A stretch of 64,000 bases of DNA, from NCBI RefSeq assembly GCF_016595525.1, contig NZ_JAENII010000011.1, forward strand, positions 101,450-165,449. Reading direction: 5' to 3'. Positions 670 through 17,666 of the stretch are shown here, piece by piece. The first letter of the stretch is position 1. The number at the start of each line of letters is the position of its first letter. The position numbers were made by a program, and so were the translations under genes. This DNA is from Haloferula rosea. Its GTDB lineage: Bacteria; Verrucomicrobiota; Verrucomicrobiia; Verrucomicrobiales; Akkermansiaceae. Under the pieces are notes generated by a model. It had not been told where the DNA came from. It did not search any database and saw only the letters and a list, made by a program, of their open reading frames with translations.

Positions 670-1635
670 TTAGAGACTGACGCGGCTCGCGTCGAGGCAA
701 GTTCGGCGCCCTTCATCAGGACGAACAAGGAAAGTTCCGCCCAACACCGCCATCTCGGCTGCGAGTTGGAGGGCCCTCCATGCCACTGCAATGGCGACAG
801 CTTCCGGAAGTGGCATGACCTGGCCCAACAACCAGGTCATGCCCGCTTCTCTTACGCCAATGCCTCCCGGCACGCCAACAGCGAAGAACCCGATCAACCA
901 GGCCAAGCCATCCACCGAGGCAAAGAATGCCAGACCCTCGGTTTCAGGAATGAAAGCCAGCACCAGCACCTTCAACAAAACCGCGTGGAACACACTGAGA
1001 CCCAGATAAGAAACGAACGCGCGACCAAGAGCGGGAAGATCCCACGAAGCATCTCGCAGCGGCGCCATTCGTCGACACAACGCGTCCCAGATTCGTGACC
1101 GCAACTTGAAAACCACAAGCCCGACCACCACCACAAGAAGCGCGATCCACCCTGCGGTTCTCCCGTCCGGCAGAAGCATCAGCCCGAGCAACTGCCGACC
1201 TGAACCCAACAAACCCAACGTGGCGAGCGTTCCCCACGCCGCAATCGTCAGCAGCAGCTCAACCAACAAACTCGCTCCCGCGACCTGCCGGCCCACCCCG
1301 ATCTCCGGTGCCTTCACCACGCGGGACGCATATCCCCAGATACCCCCGGGAAGCCACTTCATCACCTCACTCCGGATCCACAGGCGCGTCGCGCGCCCGC
1401 GACCGGGGTGCTGACCCAACCCCGCGAGGACGTCGCTCCAGATCGAGGCATTGCACCACGTGTAGGCCACAAGCCCCATGAACACCGCGACCAGGAAGGC
1501 CAGTTTGGCTCCGACCAGGGCCTCCACCGCAGCGGGCAACTGAGATCCAAAGGCGACCAGTAGTAGTGTCACCGCACAGACGGGTAGCAGGCGTTTGATC
1601 CAGATTTTCATCTTGGAGTGTCGTTTGGAGTTCAT
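670..1635 (-). CDS. Polytopic membrane protein, flippase-like / lysylphosphatidylglycerol-synthase-TM-region family (UPF0104-like)
   Basis: The track ORF 670..1716 was trimmed to the internal Met MNSKRHSKMKIWIKRLLPVCAVTLLLVAFG. It has at least 8 hydrophobic helices and is Gly/Leu-rich with no soluble domain. The start overlaps the GT4 stop by 4 nt. This family is typically paired with GT2 enzymes. Confidence 0.5.
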   Translation of the reverse strand: MNSKRHSKMKIWIKRLLPVCAVTLLLVAFGSQLPAAVEALVGAKLAFLVAVFMGLVAYTWCNASIWSDVLAGLGQHPGRGRATRLWIRSEVMKWLPGGIWGYASRVVKAPEIGVGRQVAGASLLVELLLTIAAWGTLATLGLLGSGRQLLGLMLLPDGRTAGWIALLVVVVGLVVFKLRSRIWDALCRRMAPLRDASWDLPALGRAFVSYLGLSVFHAVLLKVLVLAFIPETEGLAFFASVDGLAWLIGFFAVGVPGGIGVREAGMTWLLGQVMPLPEAVAIAVAWRALQLAAEMAVLGGTFLVRPDEGRRTCLDASRVSL

Positions 1636-2882
1636 CCGATGGCAGGGACCCGAGTGATCGCACCGAAACCACGACCCTGATAGATCCTGACGGTCATCGC
1701 GGCACAGCGGTCCCAATCAAAGACCCGGCTCGCGTGGAGCCGGCCTTGCTCTCCAAGGCGCGACGCCAACTCATCATCACTCAGGACACGCAGGATCGCT
1801 GCAGTGAGTGCCTCTTCGTCTTTCTCGGGAACGAGCAACCCAGTCTCACCATCGAGGATCACATCCACGATACCCCCCACTTGGGAAGCAATCACCGGCT
1901 TGCAGTTGGCGAGTGCCTCGATCAGCACCACCCCAAGACCTTCGGTGTCGCCCTTGTCGTCGTGGATCGCGGGATGCACATAGGCCGAGCATTCACGATA
2001 GAGCTTCCCGAGTTCTTCATTGGATACGAATCCGACAAACCGGACAACCGATTCGAGTCCAAGACTCCTCGACAGCTCCTCCCACTCCTGTTTCCGATCT
2101 CCCTCTCCAGTGATCACAAGCTTCACCTCACGTTCGGCGAGGACCGCCGGCAGGGCACGCAGCAGGACATCGATGCCCTTGCGCTGAATCAGGCGACCAC
2201 AAAAGAGGAGCGACGGCACAACACTGGAGGACTCCTCCCCAGAAGGCTCCATGTCCGGCACCGTCGCTCCATAGGGCACCACTTTGGATGCAAAACCGCA
2301 AAGCCGCTTAAGCTCCGCCGCCGTGTGCGAACTGTTCACACAAATCTCGTCGGACTGACTCAGGAAAAATTTCAGGGACCAGCGGACGATCTTGCTGTTC
2401 CGTGCCAAGGCGAGCTCCGCACCGTGGCACATGGCCACGACACGCACTCCGAGGAGCCACTTGGGAAGGAGAGCCCACAAACCGTGCGGGAATGGCCAGT
2501 GAATGTGCAGCACCTTAGTCCGGTCACGCACGCACCAGGCGAACACGGCAAACGCCCCCATGATCAGGTAGGGCAGGATGAGCAACTTGTAGCCCAGCGA
2601 CCGGGTCTTGCTGGGCGCGCCCGAATCATGCGTGAGCATCTCCCTGGACGCCGGGGCGTAGCGGAAGCGGCGGACCTCGATGTCGTCGATCTCGTGCGTC
2701 CGCAGTCCACGAAAGGAAGGGGCATAGACCTTGAGGGACTCAAGACGGTTCGCCGTGCGGGTCGCCATCTCGCGCATCCAGGGAACCTGATGGTCGTCCT
2801 GGCTACGGGCGTAAGTCGAGGTCACGACGGCAACCCGTGGGCGGTTGATACGGCCTTGGAAGGATGAAACGATGGTACTCAT
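1632..2882 (-). CDS. Glycosyltransferase family 4 (GT-B, RfaB/GT1-like)
   Basis: The track ORF 1632..3005 was trimmed to MSTIVSSFQGRINRPRVAVVTSTYA (ATG at 2882). The C-terminal half has the GT4 signature ...FCGRLIQRKGIDVLLRA...VKLVITGEGD...EALANCKPVIASQVGGIVDVILDGETGLLV... Confidence 0.75.
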   Translation of the reverse strand: MSTIVSSFQGRINRPRVAVVTSTYARSQDDHQVPWMREMATRTANRLESLKVYAPSFRGLRTHEIDDIEVRRFRYAPASREMLTHDSGAPSKTRSLGYKLLILPYLIMGAFAVFAWCVRDRTKVLHIHWPFPHGLWALLPKWLLGVRVVAMCHGAELALARNSKIVRWSLKFFLSQSDEICVNSSHTAAELKRLCGFASKVVPYGATVPDMEPSGEESSSVVPSLLFCGRLIQRKGIDVLLRALPAVLAEREVKLVITGEGDRKQEWEELSRSLGLESVVRFVGFVSNEELGKLYRECSAYVHPAIHDDKGDTEGLGVVLIEALANCKPVIASQVGGIVDVILDGETGLLVPEKDEEALTAAILRVLSDDELASRLGEQGRLHASRVFDWDRCAAMTVRIYQGRGFGAITRVPAIG

Positions 2883-2922: not shown

Positions 2923-3927
2923 TCAGGCGACGCGGGTCGCACGGTCAAAGTCGAGATGGCTTGTAGGCGCGGGGGCTTCCACCACCTGCGATACGGGAAG
3001 TTCACGAGCCTCCTTCATTTCACGATACACCCCATGCTCGAGCTGCAGCCCCTGACCGACGAACAGCATCGCAGCGATCGCAAAGAGGACCCCGGCCATG
3101 GCCGGAACCGTGGCGGCAAGGCCAGCCACCGTGAGTCCGATAGCCGTGGCCCACAGCAAACCTGCGACCCCACCTGAAAGCATCGCCAAGCGGCCGAAGA
3201 AGTGCATCGGGCGGTTGCGGTAGGTCTTGAGGAAACTGACCGTGGTCATGTCGAAGATCCCACAAAGGATGCGCTTCACGCCATACTTGCTCACACCGAA
3301 CTGACGGGCGTGGTGCTGAACCACGATCTCAGCCGTTTGGTAGCCCTCGAAAGATGCCAGGGAAGGAACCATGCGGTGCATCTCACCATACATGGGGAGC
3401 ACCTTGACCACCTCACGGCGATAGGCCTTGAAGCCGCAGTTGTGATCGTGAAGGGGAACCCCGACGAGACGGCTCAGCACGGCATTGAACACACGGCTGG
3501 GAAGCACCTTGTGCCATGGGTCGTAGCGCTTGCGCTTCCACCCGGTCACAATGCCGAATCCCTCCTCAAGTTTCTCAAGGAAGCGCGGGATCTCACACGG
3601 ATCATCCTGAAGGTCGGCGTCCATTGTGAAAACGACATCTCCAGCCGCCTGTTCGTATCCAAGCGCCAGCGCATCGGCCTTGCCAAGATTCCGGCGGAAG
3701 CGGAAAGAACGGACGGTTCCCGGATGGAGACGTGCCAGGCGGCTCATCTCACTCCATGACCGATCCGTGCTGCCATCGTCGATGAAGAGGACTTCCCAGT
3801 CGTAGGCGAGCCGTTCCATTTGATTGGCAATGCCACTGAAGAGGGTTTCGAGCGTCTCCTCCTCATTCATCGCCGGGATGATGAAGGAGACCATTTGTAG
3901 GGGGCGGTTGTTGGCGTGGATGTTCAT
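2923..3927 (-). CDS. Glycosyltransferase family 2, polyprenyl-phosphate sugar transferase (DPM1/ArnC/GtrB-like)
   Basis: MVSFIIPAMNEEETLETLFSGI...EVLFIDDGSTDRS...FTMDADLQDDP...GWKRKRYDPWHKVLPSRVFN... plus C-terminal TM helices is the classic dolichol/undecaprenyl-phosphate glycosyltransferase architecture. The start may be the internal Met at about 3894. Confidence 0.75.
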   Translation of the reverse strand: MNIHANNRPLQMVSFIIPAMNEEETLETLFSGIANQMERLAYDWEVLFIDDGSTDRSWSEMSRLARLHPGTVRSFRFRRNLGKADALALGYEQAAGDVVFTMDADLQDDPCEIPRFLEKLEEGFGIVTGWKRKRYDPWHKVLPSRVFNAVLSRLVGVPLHDHNCGFKAYRREVVKVLPMYGEMHRMVPSLASFEGYQTAEIVVQHHARQFGVSKYGVKRILCGIFDMTTVSFLKTYRNRPMHFFGRLAMLSGGVAGLLWATAIGLTVAGLAATVPAMAGVLFAIAAMLFVGQGLQLEHGVYREMKEARELPVSQVVEAPAPTSHLDFDRATRVA

Positions 3928-4167
3928 AATTCAATAGTTGGTTTGGACATCACCTAACCATCACGCCACGTGCCAAAGGCTCAACCGATGCACGCAACAC
4001 GCACCTCTTCAATGACTTATAAAACAACCCTCAAACACACCTCCGGGACCGATCGGAGCAAAACCCTGAACCATTTACCGGATTCGGAAGCGTTTACCGG
4101 AATCATCTACAGCCCCCGTTGTCTTGGCTCGGTTGACCATCCGGATCCTTTTCCTATACTGCGGCCC

Positions 4168-5625
4168 ATGCTCGCCACTTCGCGCATCGCTCTCCCAAGT
4201 GCGGTGCTGACCCTCATACTCCCCTGCTGCACCGTGGGCCCGGATTATGAGGACCCGAATCTCGTAGTTGAAGGCGAGTGGCATTCCTCGGGCGGCGATT
4301 CGGTGGTGCAAGACTACTGGACAGAACGCCTCGACGCCGACCAATCCGCCAAGCGTACCGGTGCCGAACTCTGGTGGAGGAAATTCAACGACAGCTCACT
4401 CAACAAGCTGATCACGCACGCGCGCAGAAACCACCCGACCGCCGCCGCCGCTGATGCCCGCATTCGCGAGGCGCGTGCCCAGCGGAACGTTCTCGCTTCC
4501 GCCTGGTCCCCATGGATCGGCACACGGGGTGAAATCCAAGGGGGCGAGAACAACCCGAGCACGTTCGGGGGAACCACCGGCTCCTCATTCTCCACCAACT
4601 ACATCGCCGGCCTCGAAGCCGGCTGGGAAGTCGACCTCTTCGGAGGGATCCGTCGCGGTGTCGAAGCCGCCGATGCCGAGTGGGAAGCCGCCATCGAATG
4701 GCAACGCGACGCACTCGTCGTGTTGAGCGCGGAAGTGGCACTCCACTACGTGGCCGCGAGGACCCTCGAAGAGCGGCTCGCCCGAGCAACCGAAGCCGTC
4801 GATGACTTCCGCGAGCTCCACAGGGTTCTTGTCGACCGTCAGGCAGAGGGCCTGTCTCCCGAAGCGGACGTGGCCGAGTCCAAAGCACAACTCCTGACCC
4901 GCGAAGCGAGGCTGCCGAAACTCGAGCAGGAGATGAAAGTCGCACGCATCCGACTCGCCAACAGCTCGGGAATCTACCCGAACGATCTGGACCCGATCAT
5001 GAAACGCAACCGTGGTATCCCGGTCCCTCCTTCGAAGATCCTGGTGGCGACTCCCATCGATGCCCTGCGGAATCGTCCCGACGTCCGACGGGAAGAACGC
5101 AAGCTGGCGGCGCAAACCGCGCGCATCGGCCTGGCCGAGTCCGAACTCTACCCCATCCTCTCGATTTCCGGGGGTATCAACTGGGAAAGCACGTCCGCCT
5201 CCGACCTGTTCACACAAGCGAACCGCGCCTTCGGCTTCGGTCCGAAACTCAAGTGGCGGATCTTTGAAGGATGCAAGATCAAGAACCGCATCGCCGAAGA
5301 AGAAGCACAAACCGACATCCGGCTCGCGGCTTATCGCCAGCAGGTGATGGATGCCGTCACGGAAATCGAGATTGCGATGACCCGGCTCGACACCGAAGGC
5401 CGCTACGCGAGCAAGCAAGCCGAGGCTGCCAACGCCCACCTCAAGAGCACCGAGCTGACCCGCAAGTCCTACCTCGCCGGCCTCGTCGACATTCGCCGAC
5501 TGCTGAATGCCCTCATCGACTACCACGACGCCCGAGATGAGGGAGCCGCCGCTCTCGGCCGTCGCGCCGGCTTCGCCGCAGCGCTCTTCAAGTCCATCGG
5601 TGGAGGTCAGATCCCCGATGGCTGA
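4168..5625 (+). CDS. Efflux transporter outer membrane factor lipoprotein, NodT/OprM family
   Basis: The track ORF 3970..5625 was trimmed to MLATSRIALPSAVLTLILPCCTVGPDY (lipobox with Cys, ATG at 4168). Two TolC-like repeats follow (ELWWRKFND...L; coiled-coil alpha-barrel segments). Its 3' end overlaps the convergent histidine kinase gene by 19 nt. Confidence 0.8.
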   Translation: MLATSRIALPSAVLTLILPCCTVGPDYEDPNLVVEGEWHSSGGDSVVQDYWTERLDADQSAKRTGAELWWRKFNDSSLNKLITHARRNHPTAAAADARIREARAQRNVLASAWSPWIGTRGEIQGGENNPSTFGGTTGSSFSTNYIAGLEAGWEVDLFGGIRRGVEAADAEWEAAIEWQRDALVVLSAEVALHYVAARTLEERLARATEAVDDFRELHRVLVDRQAEGLSPEADVAESKAQLLTREARLPKLEQEMKVARIRLANSSGIYPNDLDPIMKRNRGIPVPPSKILVATPIDALRNRPDVRREERKLAAQTARIGLAESELYPILSISGGINWESTSASDLFTQANRAFGFGPKLKWRIFEGCKIKNRIAEEEAQTDIRLAAYRQQVMDAVTEIEIAMTRLDTEGRYASKQAEAANAHLKSTELTRKSYLAGLVDIRRLLNALIDYHDARDEGAAALGRRAGFAAALFKSIGGGQIPDG

Positions 5626-8102
5626 TCGGTCGGAACGACCTCGAGCAACACGCGTTCGAGCTCCTTCGAATTGATCGGCTTGCTCAGGTAATAGTCCATA
5701 CCCGCCTTGCGGCATGCCTCACGGTCCGCCTCGAGCGCGTTGGCCGTCACCGCCACGATCGGGGTTCTCACGACCGCCTCGCCAGCTTCGCCAGCCCGAA
5801 TCCGCTGGCTTGCCTCCAGGCCATCCATCTCCGGCATGCGCATGTCCATCAGGATCAGATCGATGTGCCGTGATTCACCTAGCATCTCGAGGGCCTCCCG
5901 GCCGTTTCCCGCCAGCTCCACGGAAAAACCCAACTTCTCCAGCATCATCTTCAGCAATCTGCTGTTCACCGGGTGATCCTCCACCACCAGAACCTTCATC
6001 CCGCGTCCATCCAGTGCCGGACGGTCGGCCGGCTCCACCTCCGTTCGGGAAGACTCGCCACGAGCCTGCTGCAGTGGCAGGTCCACCACAAACCGCGCCC
6101 CTCCCTCCCTCTCACGGAAGGCCCGGATCTTCCCACCCATCGCCTCGAGCAAACGACGGCAGATCGCAAGACCAAGCCCGGTGCCCCCATGACGTCGGGT
6201 CGACGAAAGATCCACCTGAAAGAACGCATCAAAGAGCTTCTCCTCGTCTCCCTCAGGAAAGCCAATCCCCGTATCCTTGACCGAAAACCGGAGGGTTTCG
6301 TCGTCACGAACATCCAACGAAACAACCACCACTCCCTCCTCGGTGAACTTCACGGCATTGCCCACCAGATTCATCATGACCTGACGAAGCTCGCCACGAG
6401 CTCCGATCACGAGTCCGGGGACCCCCGAACCCACCTCCACGCTCAGATCCAACCCCTTCCCCTCAGCAACCCCGCGATGAAGATCCACCGTCTCGCGCAG
6501 GAATGCCGTAGGGTCGAAAGTCTCCTCACTCAGTACAATCCTGCCACTCTCCGCCCTCGAAAAATCGAGGATGTTGCTGATCAGGCCGAGCAGGACATCC
6601 CCACTCTTGCGGATCATCTCCACCGAGTTGCGCTGATCTTCGGCCATATCCGACTTCTCTAGTAGATCAGCAAACCCGAGGATTCCGTTGAGCGGAGTCC
6701 GGATCTCGTGACTCATGGTTGCGAGGAAAAGCGACTTGGACTCGTTCGCCAGTTCGGCGGCCTCCATCGCCTCCCTGATCTCCCGCTCCCGGCGGCGCTG
6801 ATTGGTCACGTCCCGGACGATTCCCTGCACCACCCGGTCCCCGCCGAGTTCAAACGCGTTGGCCCAGACTTCGGCGACGAAACGGCTCCCATCACTGCGG
6901 GAGAACTCACACTCAAACCGGTGGCGGCCACGCTCAGCCACTTCGGACATCGCCTCGCGCGAGATGTCCAAGGCGCTCTCAGGGTGGAGCTGCGATAGAT
7001 GCTTGCTCGTCAGATCAGAGCGCGAGTAGCCCAGCAGCTTGCACAGCGTCTCATTCACATCGAGGATCACGCCCTTCATGTCGTGGAGCACGATACCATC
7101 GAGCGATTGCTCGAACACCGTTCGGAACTTCCGTTCCCTTTCCACGACAGCCGCCTGATTCTTCCGCCTCTGCGTGAGATCTCTGGCAATCGCATAGACC
7201 CTCTTCTCCCCACCGATCTCGAAGGCGTTGCCCACCATCTCAGCCGGGAAGACCGATCCATCCGAGCGCAGGAGGTCCGCCTCGAAATGACATCTTCCCA
7301 CCTCCCTCACCTGACGGAAGGCAGCAAGTGACCGCCTGATCGAACCACGTTCGACAAGATCACGCAGACCGGCACGCAACATCCCGTCGCGCGTCATCCC
7401 GAACATCCGCACGGCGCTATCGCTGACATCGCGGATTGCACCATCGAAATCAATGATCACGATCGAGTCGACCGAAGCGTGGAAGAGCGACTCGTAACGC
7501 TGTTCCTTCAAACGGATCTCACTCTTGGATTCGCTGCGCTCGAGCTCCGCAGCCACGCCATTGCCCACGAGTTCGACGACCATCCGCCCCAACTCATCCA
7601 ATGGATGGTCCGGATCGAGTTTCATGACCACAGCGCCTACCGGCTGGATCCGGAACTTGAGGGGGATGGCCACATAGGGAACCCCGCCATCCGTCCACTC
7701 ATCGACGACAACCGCCTCCGCTCCTCGACGCCGCGCCGCCTCCGGGATCTGCTCACTCGATGACCACGACGTAATCCAGCGGGTGGTATTCAGCTCCTCG
7801 CTTTCCCGGAGAACCAAATCACCGATCGCCCCCAGGAGACGTCCCCCTTCATCCAACAGCCTGCGGACATTCGCCTCGTGATCAGCGCTCCGGGAAAGAA
7901 GCACATCGGCCAACCGTGACATGGCCTCCCGGTAGCTGCCCAAGGTCCTGCCCTGGCTTGCCAGCAACTTCTCCAGCTCCTGATTCAGCTCATAGAGCTC
8001 CGCGCTCTTTTCTTCAAGAAGCCTCTCGGCCTCGGAGCGTGCCCGTCTCTCCCGATCAAGTCGCCGCTCAATCCGACCCTGTTTGTCCAGCTGTCCACTC
8101 AT
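5607..8102 (-). CDS. Cytoplasmic hybrid sensor histidine kinase/response regulator (coiled-coil, two PAS domains, HisKA, HATPase_c, REC), H-NOX-associated (HnoK/HqsK-like)
   Basis: The 831-aa protein has PAS segments (SLFHASVDSIVIIDFDGAIRDVS...; FRTVFEQSLDGIVLHDMKGVILDVNE...), an H-box ATMSHEIRTPLNGILGF, a G-box DTGIGFPEGDEEKLFDAFFQVD...GGTGLGLAI, and a C-terminal REC (KVLVVEDHPVNSRLL...DLILMDMRMPEMDG). There is no TM helix. Its start overlaps the H-NOX stop by 4 nt. Confidence 0.85.
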   Translation of the reverse strand: MSGQLDKQGRIERRLDRERRARSEAERLLEEKSAELYELNQELEKLLASQGRTLGSYREAMSRLADVLLSRSADHEANVRRLLDEGGRLLGAIGDLVLRESEELNTTRWITSWSSSEQIPEAARRRGAEAVVVDEWTDGGVPYVAIPLKFRIQPVGAVVMKLDPDHPLDELGRMVVELVGNGVAAELERSESKSEIRLKEQRYESLFHASVDSIVIIDFDGAIRDVSDSAVRMFGMTRDGMLRAGLRDLVERGSIRRSLAAFRQVREVGRCHFEADLLRSDGSVFPAEMVGNAFEIGGEKRVYAIARDLTQRRKNQAAVVERERKFRTVFEQSLDGIVLHDMKGVILDVNETLCKLLGYSRSDLTSKHLSQLHPESALDISREAMSEVAERGRHRFECEFSRSDGSRFVAEVWANAFELGGDRVVQGIVRDVTNQRRREREIREAMEAAELANESKSLFLATMSHEIRTPLNGILGFADLLEKSDMAEDQRNSVEMIRKSGDVLLGLISNILDFSRAESGRIVLSEETFDPTAFLRETVDLHRGVAEGKGLDLSVEVGSGVPGLVIGARGELRQVMMNLVGNAVKFTEEGVVVVSLDVRDDETLRFSVKDTGIGFPEGDEEKLFDAFFQVDLSSTRRHGGTGLGLAICRRLLEAMGGKIRAFREREGGARFVVDLPLQQARGESSRTEVEPADRPALDGRGMKVLVVEDHPVNSRLLKMMLEKLGFSVELAGNGREALEMLGESRHIDLILMDMRMPEMDGLEASQRIRAGEAGEAVVRTPIVAVTANALEADREACRKAGMDYYLSKPINSKELERVLLEVVPTDQPSGI

Positions 8103-8629
8103 TGACAGCGGATCACGAACATGGTCCCGTCATCCAATGGCTCCCGCTCAATACTCGCCTCAGTCTTGAAATGAGCGATCGATCCCTCGATCAGACCATG
8201 GCAAACATCATCGAGGTGACGACTGGAGCGGTAGATCATCTCCAACACACCGGGGTCGGGTCGCCGCGTTTCAAAACTCGGCAACTCGGCGTCCGGATAG
8301 AGTTTCCTCACCTCGACGTGGATGTAGCTCTCCACCCCTTCAAGAAAAGTCAGCAGGGAGCTCGCCTTGTTGACGAACTCAGGATAAGACGCAGCGAGTT
8401 TCCCGAACAGGTGCTTCCCATAAACCTGGAGTAAGTCCGGCACGGCGACCCCGCTTCGCTCGCTCAATTCACTGACCAAGGCAACGATTTCACGATGATC
8501 GTAGGTGCCCACGGCCGTGTAAGCCCCGCCCGAAGGAAGATCGCACGCTTCGATGATGTCATCGACCATGTCTTCATCCCATTTCTGCTCTACCAGACCG
8601 AGGAACTCGGTGAAAATGATCCCTTTCAT
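8099..8629 (-). CDS. hnoX: H-NOX (heme nitric oxide/oxygen binding) sensor protein
   Basis: MKGIIFTEFLGLVEQKWDEDMVDDII..., a candidate proximal His in ...SYIHVEVRKLYP..., and the Y-x-S-x-R heme-propionate motif followed by GLIEGS (MIYRSSRHLDDVCHGLIEGSIAHFK), exactly as in characterised H-NOX domains. It is 176 aa and translationally coupled to the downstream hybrid kinase. Confidence 0.8.
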   Translation of the reverse strand: MKGIIFTEFLGLVEQKWDEDMVDDIIEACDLPSGGAYTAVGTYDHREIVALVSELSERSGVAVPDLLQVYGKHLFGKLAASYPEFVNKASSLLTFLEGVESYIHVEVRKLYPDAELPSFETRRPDPGVLEMIYRSSRHLDDVCHGLIEGSIAHFKTEASIEREPLDDGTMFVIRCQ

Positions 8630-8638
8630 ATCTTCTGT

Positions 8639-10012
8639 TCAATTTAGGCTTATCCCGTATCTCCTCATCTTGTTGTAAACCGACTTCTCCGCAATTCCCA
8701 GCCGCCTTGCCGCCTCCGCCTTGTTCCCCTCGCATGCCGCAAGAGTCTGACGGATCGCCTCCACTTCCAATTGCTCGAGGGTCAAACCAGAGAGCCCGAC
8801 AGGAAGTGCCACCGATGCCGCTGGCTCATCGCCTCCTTGAATGAAAGGTGGCAGATCCGCCACACGGATGGTCCGGTCGTCACAAAAGGCACTGGCACGC
8901 TCGAGAACATTCTCCACCTCGCGCACGTTGCCCGGCCACCGGTAAGCCGTCAGCCGGTTCTGGGCCGCAGATTCCACCCGGATCACACCACACTTCCGCC
9001 GCTTTGAAATGCCTGCGAGGATCTTTTCCATCAAGGCAGGAACATCCTCCGGACGCTCCCTCAAGGGTGGCAACTCGAGAGGGATCACATTCAGCCGGTA
9101 AAACAGATCCTCACGGAACTCGCCCGCCCGGATCTTCTCTTCGAAATCAATGTTCGTCGCTGCCACCAGGCGAAAATCCGCCTTGATTCTTTCCTCACCA
9201 CCCACCCGCTGGAACTCGCGATCCTGGAGCACGTTGAGCAATTTCGGCTGCAAGTCCATCGGCATGTCCCCGATCTCATCAAGAAACAAGGTTCCCCCTC
9301 TGGCAGCTTCGATCTTTCCCATGCGACGCTTGATCGCACCAGTGAAGGCACCTTTCTCATGCCCGAACAACTCACTCTCCAGCAATTCACGCGGAAGCGC
9401 CGGGCAACTCACGGTCACAAACGGCGATCCGGGGGCCCCACCACTGGCGTGGATGAAACGGGCGAGCGCTCCCTTGCCCACCCCGCTCTCCCCGGTCAGC
9501 AGGACGGTCGATTGAATCGGTGCCACCTTGCGGGCCTTCTTGAGAAGTTCCACCATCACCGGAGCCTCGGCGACCATCTCGCCGATCGGCGCCGCATCAC
9601 TCAGCGAGGCACGAAGTTCCTCATTCTCCTGCTGCACCTCGCGCAGCTTCGACGCATGTCGAAGGCTCAGGAAAAGGTCCTCGAGATCGAAGGGCTTCGT
9701 CTGGTAGTCATAAGCTCCGAGCTTCAGCGCACGGACGGCGTCCTCCGCCCGATCCGCCGCAGTCAGCACCACACTCGGCATTCCCGGGTGTTCCTTCTCC
9801 AAGCGTTCCAGCAGTTCAAAGCCCGACATCCCTGGCAAACCAAGATCGAGAAGAACCACTTTGACCTCATCGTTGAGGCACTGCAGCGCTTCCTCACCCT
9901 TCTCCACAGCCTTCGCCCGAAACCCGAAGTCCCTTGCTTTCAACATCAGCAACCTCCGGGTCGTCTCATCATCCTCAACGATCAATAAATCAGCTGCCCG
10001 CTCCAACTCCAT
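8639..10012 (-). CDS. Sigma-54-dependent response regulator (REC + AAA+ sigma-54 activator + Fis-type HTH; NtrC/LuxO family)
   Basis: REC (LLIVEDDETTRRLL...VLLDLGLPGMSG), Walker A GESGVGKG, the sigma-54 contact motif GAFTGA (EKGAFTGAIKRR), and a C-terminal HTH (AARRLGIAEKSVYNKMRRYGI). It is the first gene of the RR-H-NOX-HK operon. Confidence 0.9.
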   Translation of the reverse strand: MELERAADLLIVEDDETTRRLLMLKARDFGFRAKAVEKGEEALQCLNDEVKVVLLDLGLPGMSGFELLERLEKEHPGMPSVVLTAADRAEDAVRALKLGAYDYQTKPFDLEDLFLSLRHASKLREVQQENEELRASLSDAAPIGEMVAEAPVMVELLKKARKVAPIQSTVLLTGESGVGKGALARFIHASGGAPGSPFVTVSCPALPRELLESELFGHEKGAFTGAIKRRMGKIEAARGGTLFLDEIGDMPMDLQPKLLNVLQDREFQRVGGEERIKADFRLVAATNIDFEEKIRAGEFREDLFYRLNVIPLELPPLRERPEDVPALMEKILAGISKRRKCGVIRVESAAQNRLTAYRWPGNVREVENVLERASAFCDDRTIRVADLPPFIQGGDEPAASVALPVGLSGLTLEQLEVEAIRQTLAACEGNKAEAARRLGIAEKSVYNKMRRYGISLN

Positions 10013-10251
10013 TGCGGGATAGCATGTTCACCTGGCCCCTTGATGACAAGCGAACTCAACGCCTGCGGAAGATCCTACATTCCACTCACTCCAACCCGGT
10101 AGTTTCTACCGGATTTCCTCCACCCAGAAGTCATCGGACTCAGCTCGACACCATACGTAACTCATTGACTACCAACACCAACACAACACCACAAACCAAC
10201 TCGGCACGGGACATGCCATCTCCGAGTGGCGTTGAACCAACGCCTCCAAAC

Positions 10252-12702
10252 ATGAGAAACAAGATAACCACCCGTCCAAGCACGTGCTTGCAGCTACTTG
10301 CCTCGCCGTGCCTCGCCCTCGCCCTGCACGCGCAGGACGAAGCCCCACCCGTCTTCGAACCCCAACCCGATTTCTATCAAGTCGTCTCAGGACAAGCCAA
10401 CCGCTTGAATCCGAGGTCCGGAGGCTACACCCCCTTGGGGGTAAAAACGGAGTCCTACAATGCCGCCGGCTACAACCCGCTCGATGGCTACGTGTATGCA
10501 TGGGGGCGATACGCTCCCTACAAGGACAAGCTCATCCGCATTCATGGCGACGGTAGCTACCGCATCATTGGCACGCCCGTCCCGAACGCGGATGCCTCCC
10601 CGGAGACCGGCTACTATGCAGCCGACATGGACCACGACGGAAACCTCTGGGTGCGTTCCAACAAGCTCGACTCAGGTTCGGCCCTGATCCGCATCAACGT
10701 GGAAACCAACCGCTACGACATCATTCGTTTCAGCGGCGCATCAGCCGGTGGTGTCGCGGATCTCGTCTACCTGAAGATCGACGGCCGACCCTATTTCTTC
10801 GGTGCAAGGCATCAACGCCTCTTTATCTGGGACGTTGAGGCACGCACCGTCAGCCGAGTCAATGTGGCCAACCTCCCGGAAGGACGAACCACCTATGGCG
10901 CCGCGTACACAGACAAGGACGGCTCTCTCTTCGTCTCGAGCAACAAGGGTGGAGTGTATCAGATCCTCAACTTCACGAAATACAACCCGCGGGCTGTCTA
11001 CCTCCTCGACAGCGCCGTCACGAACAACAATGACGGCTGGAGCATCCCGGAGCAGGCCTCGCCCATCATCGTCCCGGAGAACCAGCCCCCGGCCATCACG
11101 CTCGGGGACTCCGCCACCACCGATCTGCCTGGTGCCAGCGTCAACATCGCGCTTACCATCACCGATGAGGGACTGCCCCTCGAGGGAGACGGCCTGACCA
11201 TTCAGTGGACTCAGGAGAGCGGTCCCGGAGAAGCGAAGTTCTCCCGCAACCACCGGGCAACCACCGACGTCACCTTCACCAAGAACGGCGACTACGTGAT
11301 CCGTGCGACCGCTGACGATGGCGAATACCAGGTCAGCGAGGACTTCAACGTGACGGTGACTAATGATGATGTCTCAAAGATCACCACCTACGCGGTTTCC
11401 GAGGATGCCTACCGGCAGGCTCGCCAGCTGTGGGCTCAGGTAAAGGAACAGCTCCACTGTCGAAATGAAGGTACCCCGCTCGAGACCGAAAAGCTGGGAT
11501 TCAATCCAGAGGACTTCCACCTCCAGGAGGATTCGGAAGTGCTCGTCACCCTGATCTACGACGGCGGGACCAACCGGAACACCCTGGGGTGGCATGATGC
11601 CTCCAATCCCGACCTCAAAACGACGATCTGGCAGGACGCCTCCACCGGCCCGAACCTGCCTCTGCGCCAAGGGGCTCGTGCAAGCCTTGGCGTTCTCCCC
11701 GCGGGCACCGATCTGCGCTTCCACCTGATTCAGGATGGAGCACGTGGTGGCTCACTGATGCTCTATCAGGACGCCTACCTCAACCCGGGCTCCATGGAGC
11801 ATGTCGCCGCACGCCTGTTCACCGGCGTTACCGAGGACCGCCCCCTCATCCTTGCCTTTGAAGACTGGGAACTGGGATACACCGACCTCGACTACAACGA
11901 TGTGATCTTTCAGATCGAATTTCGTCCCGTATCACTCGGCACCACCCAGTATGACAATGTCATTCCCGGAATCTCCGGCATTCACTCGAACCGAGAAGCA
12001 CGCGGAGTCGAGCGGCATCTGCGGAATCTAGGTATCGCCCGAGCGAGCTTCGAACATGTCGGCCAGCTCTACCAGCTGCCAAACCATCCGATCCAAGTCA
12101 CCATGATCGAAGACCGGAGCTCGATGAAGTTCGATCTCTGTGTCTATGACCACGGAAAACTCGACCACCTGGACCCGTCCTCTCTCGAATACCGCAAGAA
12201 GGCCGCGGAGAGCGCCATCTCCATCATGGACGACCGACTCTGCAACATCGGATCGGTTACCACAATGGATCCAGTGGCATTGGGACTGTCCGGCAAGACT
12301 GTCGGCTTCTTCATCGTGCCGAACAACACCCGAAGTACCTTCCTGAGGAACCCATGGCGCTACACGCCAAAGGGTCAGGGCGAGCGCACCAAACGCCAGC
12401 CACTGTTCACACTCAATGGTGCCAATGCCGGGAACCGGGACCAGTTCCTCAGTTTCGTCGGCAACTCAGGCACCGTCTTCGCCATCGAGGACCACAGCCG
12501 CTACGAAGATGAGGCTCTTCCTGAGGATGGGGCCGTGAGCGACAACACCTTTGATGACATCATCATCCACTTCGACACCGTCCTTGAGACCACCGGCGGT
12601 TTCCACGAGGACTACCGAATCGGCTCGCCGGACCCGACAACGGGATTCATTGAAGACGACGGCCATCTCCCTCGTGAGGACGATGTCGAGTGCTGCTACT
12701 GA
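10252..12702 (+). CDS. Large secreted protein (signal peptide; putative beta-propeller-like N-region, PKD/Ig-like middle domain, C-terminal DUF4114-like D-x-DYND modules)
   Basis: The track ORF 9934..12702 was trimmed to MRNKITTRPSTCLQLLASPCLALALHAQDE (signal peptide, ATG about 10252). The middle segment NQPPAITLGDSATTDLPGASVNIALTITDEGLPLEGDGLTIQWTQESGP...VTFTKNGDYVIRATADDGEY is PKD-like. ELGYTDLDYNDVIFQIEF and TFDDIIIHFD resemble DUF4114. Its function is unknown. Confidence 0.5.
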   Translation: MRNKITTRPSTCLQLLASPCLALALHAQDEAPPVFEPQPDFYQVVSGQANRLNPRSGGYTPLGVKTESYNAAGYNPLDGYVYAWGRYAPYKDKLIRIHGDGSYRIIGTPVPNADASPETGYYAADMDHDGNLWVRSNKLDSGSALIRINVETNRYDIIRFSGASAGGVADLVYLKIDGRPYFFGARHQRLFIWDVEARTVSRVNVANLPEGRTTYGAAYTDKDGSLFVSSNKGGVYQILNFTKYNPRAVYLLDSAVTNNNDGWSIPEQASPIIVPENQPPAITLGDSATTDLPGASVNIALTITDEGLPLEGDGLTIQWTQESGPGEAKFSRNHRATTDVTFTKNGDYVIRATADDGEYQVSEDFNVTVTNDDVSKITTYAVSEDAYRQARQLWAQVKEQLHCRNEGTPLETEKLGFNPEDFHLQEDSEVLVTLIYDGGTNRNTLGWHDASNPDLKTTIWQDASTGPNLPLRQGARASLGVLPAGTDLRFHLIQDGARGGSLMLYQDAYLNPGSMEHVAARLFTGVTEDRPLILAFEDWELGYTDLDYNDVIFQIEFRPVSLGTTQYDNVIPGISGIHSNREARGVERHLRNLGIARASFEHVGQLYQLPNHPIQVTMIEDRSSMKFDLCVYDHGKLDHLDPSSLEYRKKAAESAISIMDDRLCNIGSVTTMDPVALGLSGKTVGFFIVPNNTRSTFLRNPWRYTPKGQGERTKRQPLFTLNGANAGNRDQFLSFVGNSGTVFAIEDHSRYEDEALPEDGAVSDNTFDDIIIHFDTVLETTGGFHEDYRIGSPDPTTGFIEDDGHLPREDDVECCY

Positions 12703-12778
12703 GACCCTCGTAGCCAGCCAAGCAAAGGCCGGTTGCCCACCTTCAGGCGGGTGACCGGCTTCTCGCTTTGCACGAGCA

Positions 12779-13150
12779 GTGTCATCGACCACACTGTGGC
12801 GGATGGAAGCCATCGACCTCCCGCATATCGAATCCCTTGGCGGCTTGAGCAGCCCGGAGCTTGTCGAGATCCTTCAGGATTTTGTCGACGGCCTTGATCA
12901 ACAAGCGGCGGCACTCGGATCCCTAATCAATGAGGGGAACCGCCAAGGCCTGCGGGAAGCCGCACACCGACTCAAAGGTGCGGCGCAGATGGCTGGCTTC
13001 CCCGCTGTGGCACGGATCGCTGAGGAACTCGAGACCAGCGCCCGGGATGGCGACACCTTGCCCGAGCAACCCGCCATGCAGAGCCGCCTTAGTCACATCG
13101 CACAGGAAGCGATCTCTTCCTGGAACCACGCCCTTCAGTCGAAGGCCTGA
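12779..13150 (+). CDS. Histidine phosphotransfer (Hpt) domain protein, LuxU-like
   Basis: The 123-aa helical protein carries the Hpt signature AAHRLKGAAQMAGF (phospho-accepting His in the HxxKG context). There is no other domain. The start may be the internal Met MEAIDLPH at about 12803. Confidence 0.65.
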   Translation: MSSTTLWRMEAIDLPHIESLGGLSSPELVEILQDFVDGLDQQAAALGSLINEGNRQGLREAAHRLKGAAQMAGFPAVARIAEELETSARDGDTLPEQPAMQSRLSHIAQEAISSWNHALQSKA

Positions 13151-13744: not shown

Positions 13745-15067
13745 TCAGAACGAAACCCGGGCGCCGGTGTGCCAGATCCAGGCGTCGGTCTCGAATCCGC
13801 CGCCGGCTTCATCCTTCATCAGGGCATACTCCACACCATTCAGCAGGACCATCTTGTCCTGGTACACATGGAGGTTTGCCCCGAGGTAGAATGAATGGAA
13901 CTCGTCTCCAATGAAGACCGGCGAGGCATCATAGAACGGATCACTCCCCGCACCCAGGCCACCCACCAAACCGCCCGCCTGGTCGGTATCCGCGTAGTGG
14001 TAACGCCCCACCACCTGCAGCGTACCCGGAATGGCCCAGTAGCTCGGTGTCAACGTCATGCCCCAGGCATTCAGATCACCGTTCGCCAGCTGGAAGTCAC
14101 CCTCAAAGGCAAACCGATCCGCCTCAAGCTCCACACCGGTGGAGACCATGTGACGGAAGGCCGGATTCCGGTTGATCCGCTGTGCTCCGTTCGAAGCAAG
14201 CCGACCCGCCATCTGATAACGCGGAATCGAACGGCTCTCGTCCCCGTCCATGTTGTAGATGTAATCCAGATGCCAGCGCGTGCGCATCGCGCTTCCATCC
14301 TCAAGCCGCTCCGCGGACTCATAGGCCAGATTGGCCACCAGGAAGCCATTTCCCTGGATGCCCGGGATATACCGGTCCTGCGCACCCGAGAACCAACCCA
14401 GCCCCCAATCCCATGGCGCGCAATCCTGGGAGAAGGTCACGCCCAAGGTGCTCGCAGGCATCAACATGCTGCTCAGCAAACTGCGCTCCGGCGTCAACAA
14501 CTCCTGAGGGTCCTTCGACTGCTCAATCCCGAACGTTGGCCGGAACTTACCGTAGTCGACGTAGTGGTTCGGCATCACCCGGGTCCGCCCCTTCAACCGC
14601 TCGATGCGCTGGAAGTTCGCATCTCCCGCGAACTCACCCACCGCCTCCAACTCGGTATTGCCGAAAATCTTCATTCGTGCCCCAAGCCGTGCACGACGGG
14701 TTCTCGTGGTGTCGAGGTTCACATTCGGCGCACCCTCCACCTCCGCCGTCCCCCAAGAGCCGCTCCAGTGAAACATTCCCATCACCGCCAACTGCTGCAC
14801 CCAGGGGTTCGTCTCGTCCTCAAACAAGACGGCCCGTGACCAGACATCATCCAGCACCGGACTTTCCTGCCATGTCGGCGGGACGAAAACCGCAGGCTTC
14901 TCCTCCAGCAGCTCGTCCTCTTCCCCTTCAGGGGCAGGAGGCAACTGGATCTCACTGACATCCTTGTTGCCTTCGAGAATGTCGAGAGCCTCGTTGGCCG
15001 CGGCCTTCCCACCAAGCGAGCATACGCATGCTCCCGTCAAAATCAGAATTGTTCTCATCCGTATCAA
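13745..15067 (-). CDS. Putative outer-membrane beta-barrel porin (signal peptide, acidic linker, C-terminal aromatic residue)
   Basis: MIRMRTILILTGACVCSLGGKAAANE signal peptide, alternating amphipathic beta-strand character, and a terminal ...WHTGARVSF. It starts immediately after the stop of the TPR gene and is the last gene of the TonB2-type operon. The family was not identified. Confidence 0.45.
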   Translation of the reverse strand: MIRMRTILILTGACVCSLGGKAAANEALDILEGNKDVSEIQLPPAPEGEEDELLEEKPAVFVPPTWQESPVLDDVWSRAVLFEDETNPWVQQLAVMGMFHWSGSWGTAEVEGAPNVNLDTTRTRRARLGARMKIFGNTELEAVGEFAGDANFQRIERLKGRTRVMPNHYVDYGKFRPTFGIEQSKDPQELLTPERSLLSSMLMPASTLGVTFSQDCAPWDWGLGWFSGAQDRYIPGIQGNGFLVANLAYESAERLEDGSAMRTRWHLDYIYNMDGDESRSIPRYQMAGRLASNGAQRINRNPAFRHMVSTGVELEADRFAFEGDFQLANGDLNAWGMTLTPSYWAIPGTLQVVGRYHYADTDQAGGLVGGLGAGSDPFYDASPVFIGDEFHSFYLGANLHVYQDKMVLLNGVEYALMKDEAGGGFETDAWIWHTGARVSF

Positions 15068-16594
15068 TCAGTTGGTTTTCCCTGCTTCTTCAGCCTTGGC
15101 AGCCTCCTTGGCGGCACGCTCTTCAGCTTCGCGCTCCTCGCGTTGCTGCTGCCTGTCAGCGGCGCGTTGTACCTTGCCGACATATCCCTTCAGATTCTCG
15201 CTGGGTTTGATCTCCAGAGCCCGCTGCAGGTGAGGCATCGCCTTCACGTACTGGAGTTCCCTAACAAACAATTGCCCAAGGGCGAGACTCGCTCCATACG
15301 AGACTCCCTCATCATGATTCCCGGATGCCAGCTGAAGCCGCGTCTTCGCTTCCATCAGCAGTTCGCCCTTCTTCTTCTCATCCTCTTCCAGCTTCGCCAT
15401 CGAATCGTAGTGACGCCCCAGTTCAAGCAGGACCTCGCCATTTGAAGGGTCACCATCCGCAAGCACCTCAAGCAACCGGCCCACGCGCTCCATCTCGCCT
15501 GCCGTCCGGGCAATCTGAACTTCCACCAGATCCAGGTCAGTCTTCTCTTCCGCACTCAAGCCAGCTCCCGCACGCGATCGAAGTTTCTCGACGAATGCCT
15601 CCGCCTTCTCCGGATACCCATAATCGTTGAGAATCTTCGCCGACTTGAGCGTTCGTGCGATGTCGAGTTTCTCACTCTTGTCCATCGCTGCAAGGTAGGC
15701 AAACAAGGCCAACTGAGGCTCCCCCTGATCCATATAAAGGTTACCCAGCAGATTCAGTTCAGCCTCTCCCGCCAGCCCCTTCATGCGCAGCACTTCGAGA
15801 TTCACTGCCGCCTCCATCTTCCGTTCCTGTCCAAGCAACGCATTCGTCTGCTGCAGCCACAGCTGACTGTCTTCGGGATACGCTTCGATCAAGGTATCAA
15901 GCAATGCCGTCGCTTCAGCCAATTTCTCCTGCTGCAGGAGTGCTTGAGCAAGACCCAGCTTCCAATCGCGGGACTCAGGATCCAGCAGATACGCCTGCCG
16001 GTAGGCATTCTCCGCAGCGAGGGCGTTCTTCTTGAGAAGATAGCAGTATCCCAGAAGCCCGAACACCCGGGGATTCCCCTCGCCCAATGAAACCGCCTCT
16101 TGGAAATGGCGCATCGCCTTGTCGAACTCCTCCTTCGAAATGTAGAGGTAGCCAAGATTCACGTGGGCCCGACGGAACTTCGGAAACCGCCGAATCGCCT
16201 CCAGAAACGCTCGACGCGCCTCATCCGTCCGCTCCGCGGAAAAATACAGATTGCCGAGCACGAATACCATGGCCGCACTGATCTCACGTGGCTGCTTCTC
16301 CGGATCACTTGGAGCTTCCGTTTCCTTGATGAATCTCACCAACTGCTGCTCCGCAGCAGAGAACTGATTCTTCTCAAACAACTCCCGGATCTTCACCAGC
16401 TCCCGACCTTCCGCCGCACTCACCTTCGGTTCGATCTCCGAGTGAAACCCATAACTCCCGACGAACTCTCGAATGAAGGTCGGGTCACGGAAGAGATTAC
16501 TCGGTGGAATGATGCGATCGGCAGCAGCCGGCATGAGCGATGCACAGAACAATAGGAGTTGGAGGAACGGGCGCATGGGATATCTGAACTTCAT
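15068..16594 (-). CDS. TPR-repeat protein, TtpD-like accessory protein of TonB2-type systems
   Basis: The track ORF was trimmed to MKFRYPMRPFLQLLLFCASLMPAAADR (signal peptide). Its start overlaps the TonB stop by 4 nt (ATGA at 16591-16594, confirmed in the printed sequence). It has multiple 34-residue TPR-like helical repeats and a Lys/Glu-rich C-terminus. Confidence 0.65.
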   Translation of the reverse strand: MKFRYPMRPFLQLLLFCASLMPAAADRIIPPSNLFRDPTFIREFVGSYGFHSEIEPKVSAAEGRELVKIRELFEKNQFSAAEQQLVRFIKETEAPSDPEKQPREISAAMVFVLGNLYFSAERTDEARRAFLEAIRRFPKFRRAHVNLGYLYISKEEFDKAMRHFQEAVSLGEGNPRVFGLLGYCYLLKKNALAAENAYRQAYLLDPESRDWKLGLAQALLQQEKLAEATALLDTLIEAYPEDSQLWLQQTNALLGQERKMEAAVNLEVLRMKGLAGEAELNLLGNLYMDQGEPQLALFAYLAAMDKSEKLDIARTLKSAKILNDYGYPEKAEAFVEKLRSRAGAGLSAEEKTDLDLVEVQIARTAGEMERVGRLLEVLADGDPSNGEVLLELGRHYDSMAKLEEDEKKKGELLMEAKTRLQLASGNHDEGVSYGASLALGQLFVRELQYVKAMPHLQRALEIKPSENLKGYVGKVQRAADRQQQREEREAEERAAKEAAKAEEAGKTN

Positions 16595-17244: not shown

Positions 17245-17655
17245 CTACTTCGTGGAGATCGAGATCTTGTCCTTTTGCGCCCCGGCGAGCATCGCCTGCC
17301 CATGGACCTTCTGGACGGTTCCGTGGGATGATTCCTGATCGCCCTGGATGATCACCGGCATGTCAGGCGTTTCGGTCAGCAGAGGCTTGATCTTCCCGAT
17401 CACACCCTGAATCCCGATGCTCTCACCACCGTAGAACACCTTGTCGTCCTTCGTCACCGCCAGGAGAATCGAGTTGCTGTCCAAGGCACTCGCTGCCGCA
17501 CCCACATCAGGCTTGTTCACCTCCACCCCCGTCTCCTCCACAAACACCGTCGAAACGATGAAGAAGATGAGCAGGATGAAGATGCAGTCGATCATCGGTG
17601 AGAGATCGACATGAACCTCTTCGTCGGCTTCTTCGCTGATACCGCGTCCAAACAT
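17245..17655 (-). CDS. exbD: Biopolymer transport protein ExbD/TolR
   Basis: The 136-aa protein has [20 protein letters not shown] (single TM, ExbD signature) and a periplasmic domain. Confidence 0.85.
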
Positions 17656-17666
17656 GAGAATCGTCG

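Follow-up and report, generated by a model that had tools for sequence, protein, structure and literature searches.

A Haloferula rosea locus encoding a sigma-54 activator, an H-NOX protein, a hybrid kinase and an Hpt protein: a candidate nitric oxide-responsive phosphorelay with two flanking candidate promoters

RESULTS

Four linked genes for a probable NO-responsive relay

In a 64-kb stretch of the Haloferula rosea genome, referred to here at its full length as the window, positions 5607-13150 encode a sigma-54-dependent response regulator (RR), an H-NOX protein, a hybrid histidine kinase (HK) without transmembrane (TM) segments and a stand-alone histidine phosphotransfer protein (Hpt), all with their catalytic residues intact. 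We consider it reasonably probable (about 0.6) that this locus specifies a dedicated, genetically linked four-protein phosphorelay that responds to nitric oxide (NO) and acts on two promoters flanking the operon. Such a relay is an unusually self-contained example of a pathway type that is already known and introduces no new principle.

In the mechanism that we propose, RR, H-NOX and HK would be made from one operon, the haem of H-NOX would bind NO, and NO-bound H-NOX would lower HK autophosphorylation. The sign of this regulation is taken from the characterized H-NOX/kinase pairs, every one of which behaves in this way (PMC4436077, PMC6769237, PMC12369376, PMC8846402). Without NO, phosphate would pass from HK His465 to HK Asp753, on to the Hpt histidine and finally to RR Asp56, and phosphorylated RR would assemble on CCGGTA-N5-TACCGG enhancers and activate sigma-54 holoenzyme at two promoters flanking its own operon. 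One of these would serve SEC, a gene for a secreted protein, possibly with read-through into hpt that would create a feedback loop; the other would serve an operon for GT2 and GT4 glycosyltransferases and a flippase-like protein, followed by a membrane-fusion protein gene. NO would then bring both the SEC and the GT2 units down.

The four core genes are as follows.

8639-10012, minus strand: sigma-54-dependent RR (a bacterial enhancer-binding protein, bEBP), first gene of the operon (Pfam, NCBIfam, motifs)
8099-8629, minus strand: stand-alone H-NOX haem sensor, 176 amino acids (aa) (PF07700, E = 9.4e-40)
5607-8102, minus strand: cytoplasmic hybrid HK, 831 aa (Pfam, NCBIfam, motifs, hydropathy)
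12803-13150 (alternative GTG start at 12779), plus strand: stand-alone Hpt, 115 aa (PF01627, E = 5.6e-16; HRLKGAA)

On the minus strand, RR, H-NOX and HK fill 5607-10012 as three tightly packed genes, with 9 nt from the RR stop codon to the H-NOX start codon and with the H-NOX stop and HK start codons overlapping as ATGA. The initial annotation of this DNA had described these four genes in an apparently verrucomicrobial background, with an NtrC-family sigma-54 activator carrying GAFTGA at the head of the operon and the H-NOX gene translationally coupled to the HK gene by a 4-nt overlap. By their Pfam domains, motifs and junctions all four genes are present, the overlap can be read at the junction, RR is indeed the first gene, and the host does belong to the Verrucomicrobiota, its H-NOX sequence matching at 100% identity a protein annotated from H. 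rosea.

Pfam divides the 457-aa RR into REC, Sigma54_activat (E = 1.5e-65), AAA_lid_14 and HTH_8 (residues 411-452) domains. The receiver aspartate (D56), an AAA+ domain with Walker A (GESGVGK, 174-180), GAFTGA (221-226) and Walker B (DEIG, 245-248), and a C-terminal Fis-type helix-turn-helix together place it among the NtrC-family bEBPs, and NCBIfam puts it in the generic NtrC/AtoC family, under every equivalog cut-off. Upstream of the gene, a TTGTCA-N17-CATGCT block (window 10020-10055, minus-strand sense, ~10-45 nt before the RR start) is kept in four of four Haloferula-like loci and may act as constitutive promoter or as leader for the RR-H-NOX-HK operon.

The HK consists of two PAS domains, HisKA (H465 in HEIRTP), HATPase_c and a C-terminal REC domain (D753, K808), with N, G1 and G2 boxes present. 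Because its highest Kyte-Doolittle mean over 19 residues is only 1.21, we regard it as free of TM segments. The initial description of a TM-less PAS-PAS hybrid kinase therefore stands, with the addition of ~190 further N-terminal residues ahead of the first PAS domain. Encoded directly after H-NOX across the ATGA overlap, cytoplasmic and equipped with both the catalytic His and Asp, the protein fits the HahK/HqsK type of kinase.

The Hpt gene begins ~100 nt past the end of SEC, the secreted-protein gene beyond which the HRLKGAA-containing Hpt had been placed at the outset. Its phospho-accepting His lies in HRLKG at residues 55-59, in the H-x-x-K-G context, and its start is more likely ATG 12803 than GTG 12779, the start first assigned. 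No convincing terminator was found in the SEC-hpt gap, where a hairpin with 12 of 15 bp paired was read by eye at ~12730-12760; in Haloferula, therefore, Hpt may itself be under feedback control by the relay.

An H-NOX protein with an apolar haem pocket

In a PDB sequence search the best solved relatives of the H. rosea H-NOX protein were those of Kordia algicida (6bde, E = 2.5e-39), Shewanella woodyi and S. oneidensis. An AF2 model built with 38 homologues had a mean pLDDT of 89.9 and a Foldseek TM score of 0.91 against the K. algicida and S. oneidensis (4u9b) crystal structures, and so has the H-NOX fold. In the alignment, His104 occupies the position of the proximal His in solved H-NOX proteins; the loss of this residue, which the initial annotation had named as grounds for giving up its proposal, was not seen. 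The two haem-pocket motifs that it had reported are likewise in place (YRSSR at 133-137 and GLIEGS at 145-150), and the proximal His, Pro117 and Y133/S135/R137 are invariant or nearly so across the 38 homologues.

Comparison with Tt H-NOX, as the initial annotation had proposed, bears on the ligand. In an alignment to a Tt H-NOX sequence whose only control was the published residue numbering, the counterparts of His104, Pro117 and Y133-x-S135-x-R137 are H102, P115 and the Y-x-S-x-R motif. At the three positions of the O2-stabilizing residues W9/N74/Y140, the H. rosea protein has F9/L74/V142, which gives an apolar pocket with no hydrogen-bonding Tyr. To judge from this alignment, these are the residues typical of NO-selective H-NOX proteins in aerobic organisms, and stable O2 binding is not expected because the distal pocket is apolar.

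We have also weighed whether the protein might report CO, O2 or the redox state of its cysteines rather than NO. The identity of the ligand is deduced from sequence comparison, haem-free Vibrio cholerae H-NOX can be a thiol/zinc redox sensor (PMC7108781), and the H. rosea protein has three cysteines (Cys29, Cys143 and Cys175). Nevertheless, the intact proximal His, YxSxR motif and Pro117, the replacement of the O2-stabilizing residues and the fact that the closest solved relatives are NO-type H-NOX proteins make a signal other than NO very improbable. A literature search for H-NOX studies in Verrucomicrobiota returned incidental mentions only.

The module stays together in other verrucomicrobial genera

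For comparison we took one genome per species, which gave 29 loci encoding an H-NOX relative, and added L030 and L031 from exact-protein look-ups. The window proteins were mapped onto each locus, and its open reading frames (ORFs) were then scanned with the Hpt sequence and Pfam. RR, H-NOX and HK were co-directional and tightly spaced in ten loci (L001-L003, L005, L006, L009, L011, L029, L030 and L031), and the four genes were linked in at least five verrucomicrobial genera. Arrangements in relatives, including metagenome-assembled genomes (MAGs), were as follows.

L001, L002 (Haloferula-like): Hpt-SEC / RR-HNOX-HK, as in the window
L003 (Haloferula-like, 3.8-kb contig): SEC / RR-HNOX-HK; the contig stops inside SEC, so Hpt is not scorable
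L005 (Roseibacillus persicicus), L006 (MAG JB023), L031 (Verrucomicrobiaceae bacterium 227): without SEC, Hpt directly divergent from RR
L009, L011 (MAGs): REC-Hpt fusion gene between RR and H-NOX
L007: Hpt divergent from H-NOX, without RR
L029 (Crocinitomicaceae, Bacteroidota MAG): sigma-54 RR-HNOX-HK; the contig stops inside the kinase gene
L030 (Rubritalea marina): RR-HNOX-HK

An Hpt gene or domain lay beside RR-HNOX-HK in seven of the eight scorable verrucomicrobial loci, in three different positions. Because Hpt remains a neighbour of the module through changes of position and fusion state, functional partnership is a better explanation than inherited gene order; on the strength of gene neighbourhoods, such retention is good evidence of partnership, though it leaves phosphotransfer itself unproven. 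The description of Hpt as an orphan does not survive this comparison, which shows it to be a conserved member of the locus. The comparison also lends support to the route from H-NOX through hybrid HK and Hpt to the sigma-54 RR that the initial annotation had predicted.

Two loci count against that route. No Hpt was found within 10 kb of the R. marina module (L030), and in L004 (uncultured Haloferula MAG, 8546-13062) the H-NOX and HK genes, whose products are 74% and 67% identical to the window proteins, are preceded by a PUA/SAM-methyltransferase gene in place of the sigma-54 RR; L004 represents either a paralogous second copy or a lineage in which the linkage has been lost. Both loci would suit an alternative in which Hpt, RR or both are not cognate, so that HK feeds other receivers, such as a GT2-REC paralogue or cyclic di-GMP (c-di-GMP) enzymes, and another kinase phosphorylates RR. 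GT2-REC proteins are indeed widespread and pair with Hpt genes (see below), and known H-NOX kinases are promiscuous, HahK using both SypF and LuxU (PMC12369376) and HnoK several RRs. Set against this, RR-HNOX-HK is co-directional and tightly spaced in all ten loci (in L029 as far as the contig end), and Hpt has been kept beside the module despite rearrangements. We therefore regard non-cognate partners as unlikely and retain the four-protein relay.

The N terminus of HK has a conserved helix motif at residues ~12-45, followed by a region (~55-190) without a domain match. Searched against PDB sequences, a six-orthologue profile of the latter gave nothing beyond the start of the first PAS domain, and a single-sequence AF2 model of residues 1-330 was unusable (pLDDT 45.9); a GAF-like alpha/beta pattern at ~55-190 is only a guess. 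The helix motif (R-x-L-x-R-E-[RK]-x-A-R-x-x-A-E-x-L-L-E-x-K-S-x-E-L-[YF]-x-x-N; window 7968-8066) opens the protein encoded after H-NOX in 20 of the 29 loci, from several phyla (L001-L015, L021, L023, L025, L026 and L029), and is carried by hybrid kinases and GGDEF-EAL proteins alike (Rhizobium/Allorhizobium L014, L021). The helix may serve generally to couple proteins to H-NOX; no description of it was found in the searchable literature.

Two flanking promoter regions as candidate targets

The relay had been predicted to control a sigma-54 regulon of unknown targets. Regulation by sigma-54 remains the prediction, and two promoter regions flanking the operon can now be proposed as targets. The first lies in the RR/SEC intergenic region.

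10252-12702, plus strand: SEC, secreted DUF6923-PKD-DUF4114x2 protein of 816 aa, divergent from RR (Pfam, sequence, synteny)
10202-10217, plus strand: candidate SEC sigma-54 promoter CGGCACGGGACATGCC (GG-N10-GC), ending 34 nt before ATG 10252 (cross-locus conservation)
10096-10112, no strand: perfect palindrome CCGGTAGTTTCTACCGG, candidate enhancer (upstream activating sequence, UAS) for RR, starting 106 nt upstream of the SEC -24 element

SEC has a signal-peptide-like N terminus and occupies this position only in Haloferula-like loci. The gene had initially been started at 9934, but the 5' extension of this long ORF (9934-12702) falls in a region with indels and low conservation, and we accordingly rejected it in favour of ATG 10252. 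Four orthologous RR/SEC intergenic regions are 67% identical overall and have two conserved blocks. In the first, GG-N10-GC sits within (C/T)GG(C/T)A(C/T)(G/A)-N4-(A/C)TGCC, 34-35 nt before the start codon, and its -24 GG and -12 TGC are invariant in all four loci. The second block is the palindrome CCGGTA-N5-TACCGG, of which the window has a perfect copy. Read in the reverse orientation, towards RR, GG-N10-GC is found in only three of the four and the enhancer would fall downstream, so we judged that orientation less likely on grounds of conservation (4/4 versus 3/4) and palindrome position.

The second promoter region lies on the other side of the operon, where a NodT-family gene converges on HK and the GT2 operon begins beyond it, transcribed away from the locus.

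4168-5625, plus strand: NodT-family outer-membrane efflux lipoprotein, convergent on HK (Pfam; TIGR01845, 273.7 bits, cut-off 210; conserved neighbour)
2923-3927, minus strand: GT2 of the ArnC/GtrB-like polyprenyl-phosphate sugar transferase type, first operon gene (Pfam, NCBIfam)
1632-2882, minus strand: GT4 glycosyltransferase, second operon gene (Pfam, NCBIfam, synteny)
670-1611, minus strand: polytopic membrane protein, third operon gene (synteny)
From 657, minus strand: membrane-fusion-like gene, continuing past the window edge
3960-3975, minus strand: candidate sigma-54-type GT2 promoter TGGCACGTGGCGTGAT, ending 32 nt before ATG 3927, with GA rather than GC at -12 (conservation)
4065-4081 and 4084-4100, no strand: two palindrome copies with 2 mismatches each, starting 106 and 125 nt upstream of the GT2 -24 element

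The polytopic protein (670-1611) has no direct Pfam or NCBIfam match and is called flippase-like because its L031 positional counterpart (316 aa, compared by position alone) hits PF03706, LPG_synthase_TM. Synthesis or export of a surface glycan or glycolipid is the probable role of the operon. The NodT-family gene shares its intergenic region with the GT2 operon, and a sigma-70-like TTGACC-16-TATACT is found there at 4133-4160.

Aligned over three genera, the GT2 upstream region is 53% identical and keeps TGGCACG-N4-nTG(A/G)T 30-32 nt before the ATG; the element, as TGGCAC(G)-N4-nTG(A/G)T, is shared by the window, L001, L002, L005 and L006. Across genera the palindrome pair starts 105-106 and ~124-137 nt upstream of the -24 element. 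Orthologous or analogous GT2-type sites are canonical, with GC at -12, in L031, L011, L030 (two sites) and L009. In strain 227 (L031), TGGCACGGGCGGTGCC precedes the GT2 gene with a palindrome at -103; in R. marina (L030), TGGCACGGTG(C/T)TCGCA stands ahead of each of two GT2 genes divergent from RR; in L011, TGGCACGTGCCCTGCC stands ahead of a gene for a GT2 with an attached receiver (GT2-REC); and in L009, TGGCATGGGGAATGCC and two palindromes head an exopolysaccharide (EPS)-type operon (GT4, GT2 plus sugar transferase, acetyltransferase, WecG) continuing into the RR gene. The upstream palindrome of L011 (~9178-9195) reads CGGCA-N5-TGCCG instead of CGGTA-N5-TACCG, a symmetric change in both half-sites such as would be expected of a dimeric regulator drifting together with its own site.

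In the 64-kb window CCGGTA-N5-TACCGG has three matches at up to 2 mismatches, every one of them in one or other of the two intergenic regions beside the operon, and matches cluster at the same places in L001, L002, L003, L005 and L006; 18 loci from other phyla (330 kb in total) had 17 scattered matches. Among the SEC, GT2 or EPS-type genes adjoining the module, 13 of 14 had a sigma-54-type 16-mer scoring at least 8.5 within 26-46 nt before the ATG, where background alone would give 0.022 such sites per 75-nt window, and in 10 of the 14 promoters the palindrome starts 105-106 nt upstream of the element.

The best sigma-54 site of the window, TGGCACGCCCCCTGCT (27942-27927, minus strand), stands 26 nt before the ATG of another gene.

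27553-27900, minus strand: P-II nitrogen-regulatory gene (PF00543, E = 5e-35)

The P-II gene is a classic sigma-54 target, and we take TGGCACGCCCCCTGCT as a circumstantial in-window positive control that this genome uses sigma-54, of which the intact GAFTGA of RR is a further indirect sign. A hairpin with a T8 run follows the gene, near 27525-27480. A further sigma-54-like site at 551-566 (minus strand, score 13.6) lies inside the membrane-fusion-like coding sequence, is not conserved in L001 or L002 and was set aside as a chance match. Scans of the 64-kb window with Rfam found no family reaching its gathering score, Qrr included, and a tRNA scan of it was empty.

Several observations weigh against assigning these promoters to the relay. 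The SEC site has 3 mismatches to TGGCACG-N4-TTGCW, and a consensus search of the window gave 5 matches at 2 or fewer mismatches against 9.3 expected, so that the SEC site is not above chance; being itself palindromic, it is also ambiguous in orientation by sequence. At the GT2 promoter the near-invariant -12 GC is replaced by GA or GG in the window, L001, L002, L005 and L006. The sigma-54 matrix behind the 13-of-14 count is our own approximation of the published consensus, and the orthologous promoters in that count are not independent observations. A different regulator could bind the palindrome. Finally, rpoN was not among the ten large window ORFs or the other window proteins scanned; a literature search on rpoN in Verrucomicrobia found nothing usable. 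Within one window, consensus searches alone leave both promoters at chance, and only cross-genome conservation and geometry separate them from it.

These points lend some credit to a reading in which the relay is wired as we propose while its regulon lies elsewhere, the adjoining elements and palindromes belonging to other regulators and the GT2 promoter not being sigma-54 dependent. The GT2 site without a -12 C in five loci and the weak consensus of the SEC site speak for such a reading, and bEBPs often act at distant loci, as LuxO does on the qrr genes (PMC6769237). It has more difficulty with two unrelated promoters of one genome that have the same palindrome at the same distance from the -24 element, with the repetition of this geometry in nine other loci, including fully canonical sites in L030, L031, L011 and L009, and with the lack of any other bEBP gene in the module neighbourhoods examined. 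We give a regulon elsewhere a minor but appreciable chance and prefer the reading in which the two flanking promoters are targets of the relay.

A possible second route to the same glycosyltransferases

In two relatives the GT2 at the operon position carries a C-terminal REC domain (L007, 5550-6959, minus strand; L011, 9393-10829, plus strand). GT2-REC proteins form a large family of more than 100 clusters, with further entries in L032 (10001-11437) and L033 (9595-11416), and often head a GT2-REC/GT4/LPG_synthase_TM triad; strain 227 has such a paralogous triad, headed by GT2-REC, elsewhere in its genome. In L033, from a Rubritalea genome, an Hpt gene immediately precedes the GT2-REC gene, and the GT2-REC gene of L007 is likewise a neighbour of an Hpt gene. 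L007 has H-NOX, HK, Hpt and GT2-REC and neither a sigma-54 RR nor a sigma-54-type site.

This distribution suggests that all these lineages have one output in common, the glycosyltransferase system, which would be reached by transcription in some and by direct phosphorylation in others. A tentative extension, which we hold to be possible though doubtful, is that across the Verrucomicrobiaceae a single ArnC-like GT2-GT4-flippase surface-glycan pathway is under the control of one NO-gated H-NOX/HK/Hpt module, which reaches it by two interchangeable routes. The first would be transcriptional, through the sigma-54 activator on its palindromes (Haloferula, Roseibacillus, Rubritalea and strain 227); the second would be post-translational, through Hpt-to-receiver phosphotransfer onto GT2-REC (L007); and L011 would use both.

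Other genes noticed

Further along the window, 13745-27344 (minus strand) holds a long co-directional cluster with porin-like, TPR, TonB, ExbD, ExbB and MotA/ExbB-family proteins, together with a 1009-aa protein and a 1215-aa TonB-dependent-receptor-like protein with CarboxypepD_reg. Divergent from the P-II gene is a gene for a radical-SAM protein with an N-terminal HMPTM-type zinc ribbon (28115-29446, plus strand), and the product of 30142-35277 (minus strand), 1711 aa long, combines DUF3686 ("ATPase involved in DNA repair", E = 2e-183) and DUF7902 with an AAA domain at its C terminus. The R. persicicus locus (L005) includes a MetH-like ORF at 4029-7511 with B12-dependent methionine synthase domains and an IS200-like Y1 transposase match inside it, at residues 882-959.

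DISCUSSION

NO-bound H-NOX inhibits hybrid kinases that signal via Hpt to LuxO or SypG (PMC6769237, PMC12369376), and it likewise inhibits kinase signalling to a diguanylate cyclase (PMC4436077). The initial annotation had called the H. rosea system LuxO/LuxU-like. The order of components is indeed that of the Vibrio harveyi/parahaemolyticus route from H-NOX/HqsK through LuxU and LuxO to qrr (PMC6769237, PMC6759604), and in neither system does the kinase itself have a membrane or ligand-binding domain with which to perceive the gas. Orthology, on the other hand, does not hold: RR scores 320.5 bits against the LuxO model (NF041946, cut-off 800) and Hpt 20.8 bits against the LuxU model (NF041948, cut-off 140). 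Nor was a Qrr RNA detected in the 64-kb window, and autoinducer kinases acting in parallel are missing from the locus. The Vibrio RR and Hpt form a common hub whose genes lie elsewhere, whereas the H. rosea RR leads the H-NOX operon, and the H. rosea HK, unlike HqsK, has two PAS domains and an extra N-terminal region.

The closer analogue is the V. fischeri relay HnoX-HahK-SypF(Hpt)-SypG, which acts on syp (SypF/LuxU, then SypG; PMC12369376). There, as proposed for H. rosea, the genes for H-NOX and a cytoplasmic hybrid HK share a transcript, the signal runs via Hpt to a sigma-54 RR, the regulated genes are surface-polysaccharide glycosyltransferases and export functions (in H. rosea, the candidate targets), and NO is expected to lower the pathway. 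The two systems differ in that the V. fischeri Hpt is a domain of the sensor kinase SypF, shared with RscS and BinK inputs, and the SypG gene belongs to the syp locus, with no linkage to hnoX-hahK, whereas H. rosea has a stand-alone Hpt and gathers RR, sensor, kinase, Hpt and candidate targets in one locus. The candidate targets themselves, an ArnC-like GT2, a GT4 and a flippase-like protein, are unrelated to the 18-gene syp cluster and belong to another phylum. The HahK relay of Pseudoalteromonas atlantica is reportedly a similar H-NOX/hybrid HK/Hpt system.

In Silicibacter sp. TrichCH4B (PMC4436077), as in the relay proposed for H. rosea, H-NOX is encoded beside a hybrid HK, with a stand-alone Hpt as obligatory intermediate and a kinase inhibited by NO-H-NOX, but the output is a c-di-GMP enzyme, found by screening orphan RRs, rather than an operon-encoded transcription activator. 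Shewanella oneidensis HnoX/HnoK, acting on HnoB, HnoC and HnoD (PMC8846402), has an H-NOX-controlled cytoplasmic kinase, such as is predicted for H. rosea, and its H-NOX is the 4u9b protein whose fold matches at a TM score of 0.91; HnoK, however, is not hybrid and needs no Hpt, and its outputs are a phosphodiesterase and non-sigma-54 regulators. What sets the H. rosea locus apart from all described cases is the RR-led H-NOX operon, the linked stand-alone Hpt and candidate targets, the two PAS domains and additional N-terminal region of HK, and the verrucomicrobial host.

Nearly all that has been worked out about H-NOX signalling comes from Proteobacteria, where the parts acting after the kinase are usually unlinked and have been found by screening. 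Here, sensor, kinase, Hpt, regulator and candidate cis-elements lie within ~13 kb of the genome of a cultured marine verrucomicrobium, in a layout that recurs across several genera, and each step is therefore directly testable. Were the two-route reading correct, H-NOX signalling would gain a new kind of terminal output, a polyprenyl-phosphate glycosyltransferase regulated by a receiver, and these lineages would show, as a natural experiment, how the control of one pathway can be rewired between gene and enzyme. The predicted output of the H. rosea relay, a surface-glycan/export operon and a secreted repeat protein, fits the theme of attachment and biofilm formation governed by NO and would extend it to a new phylum.

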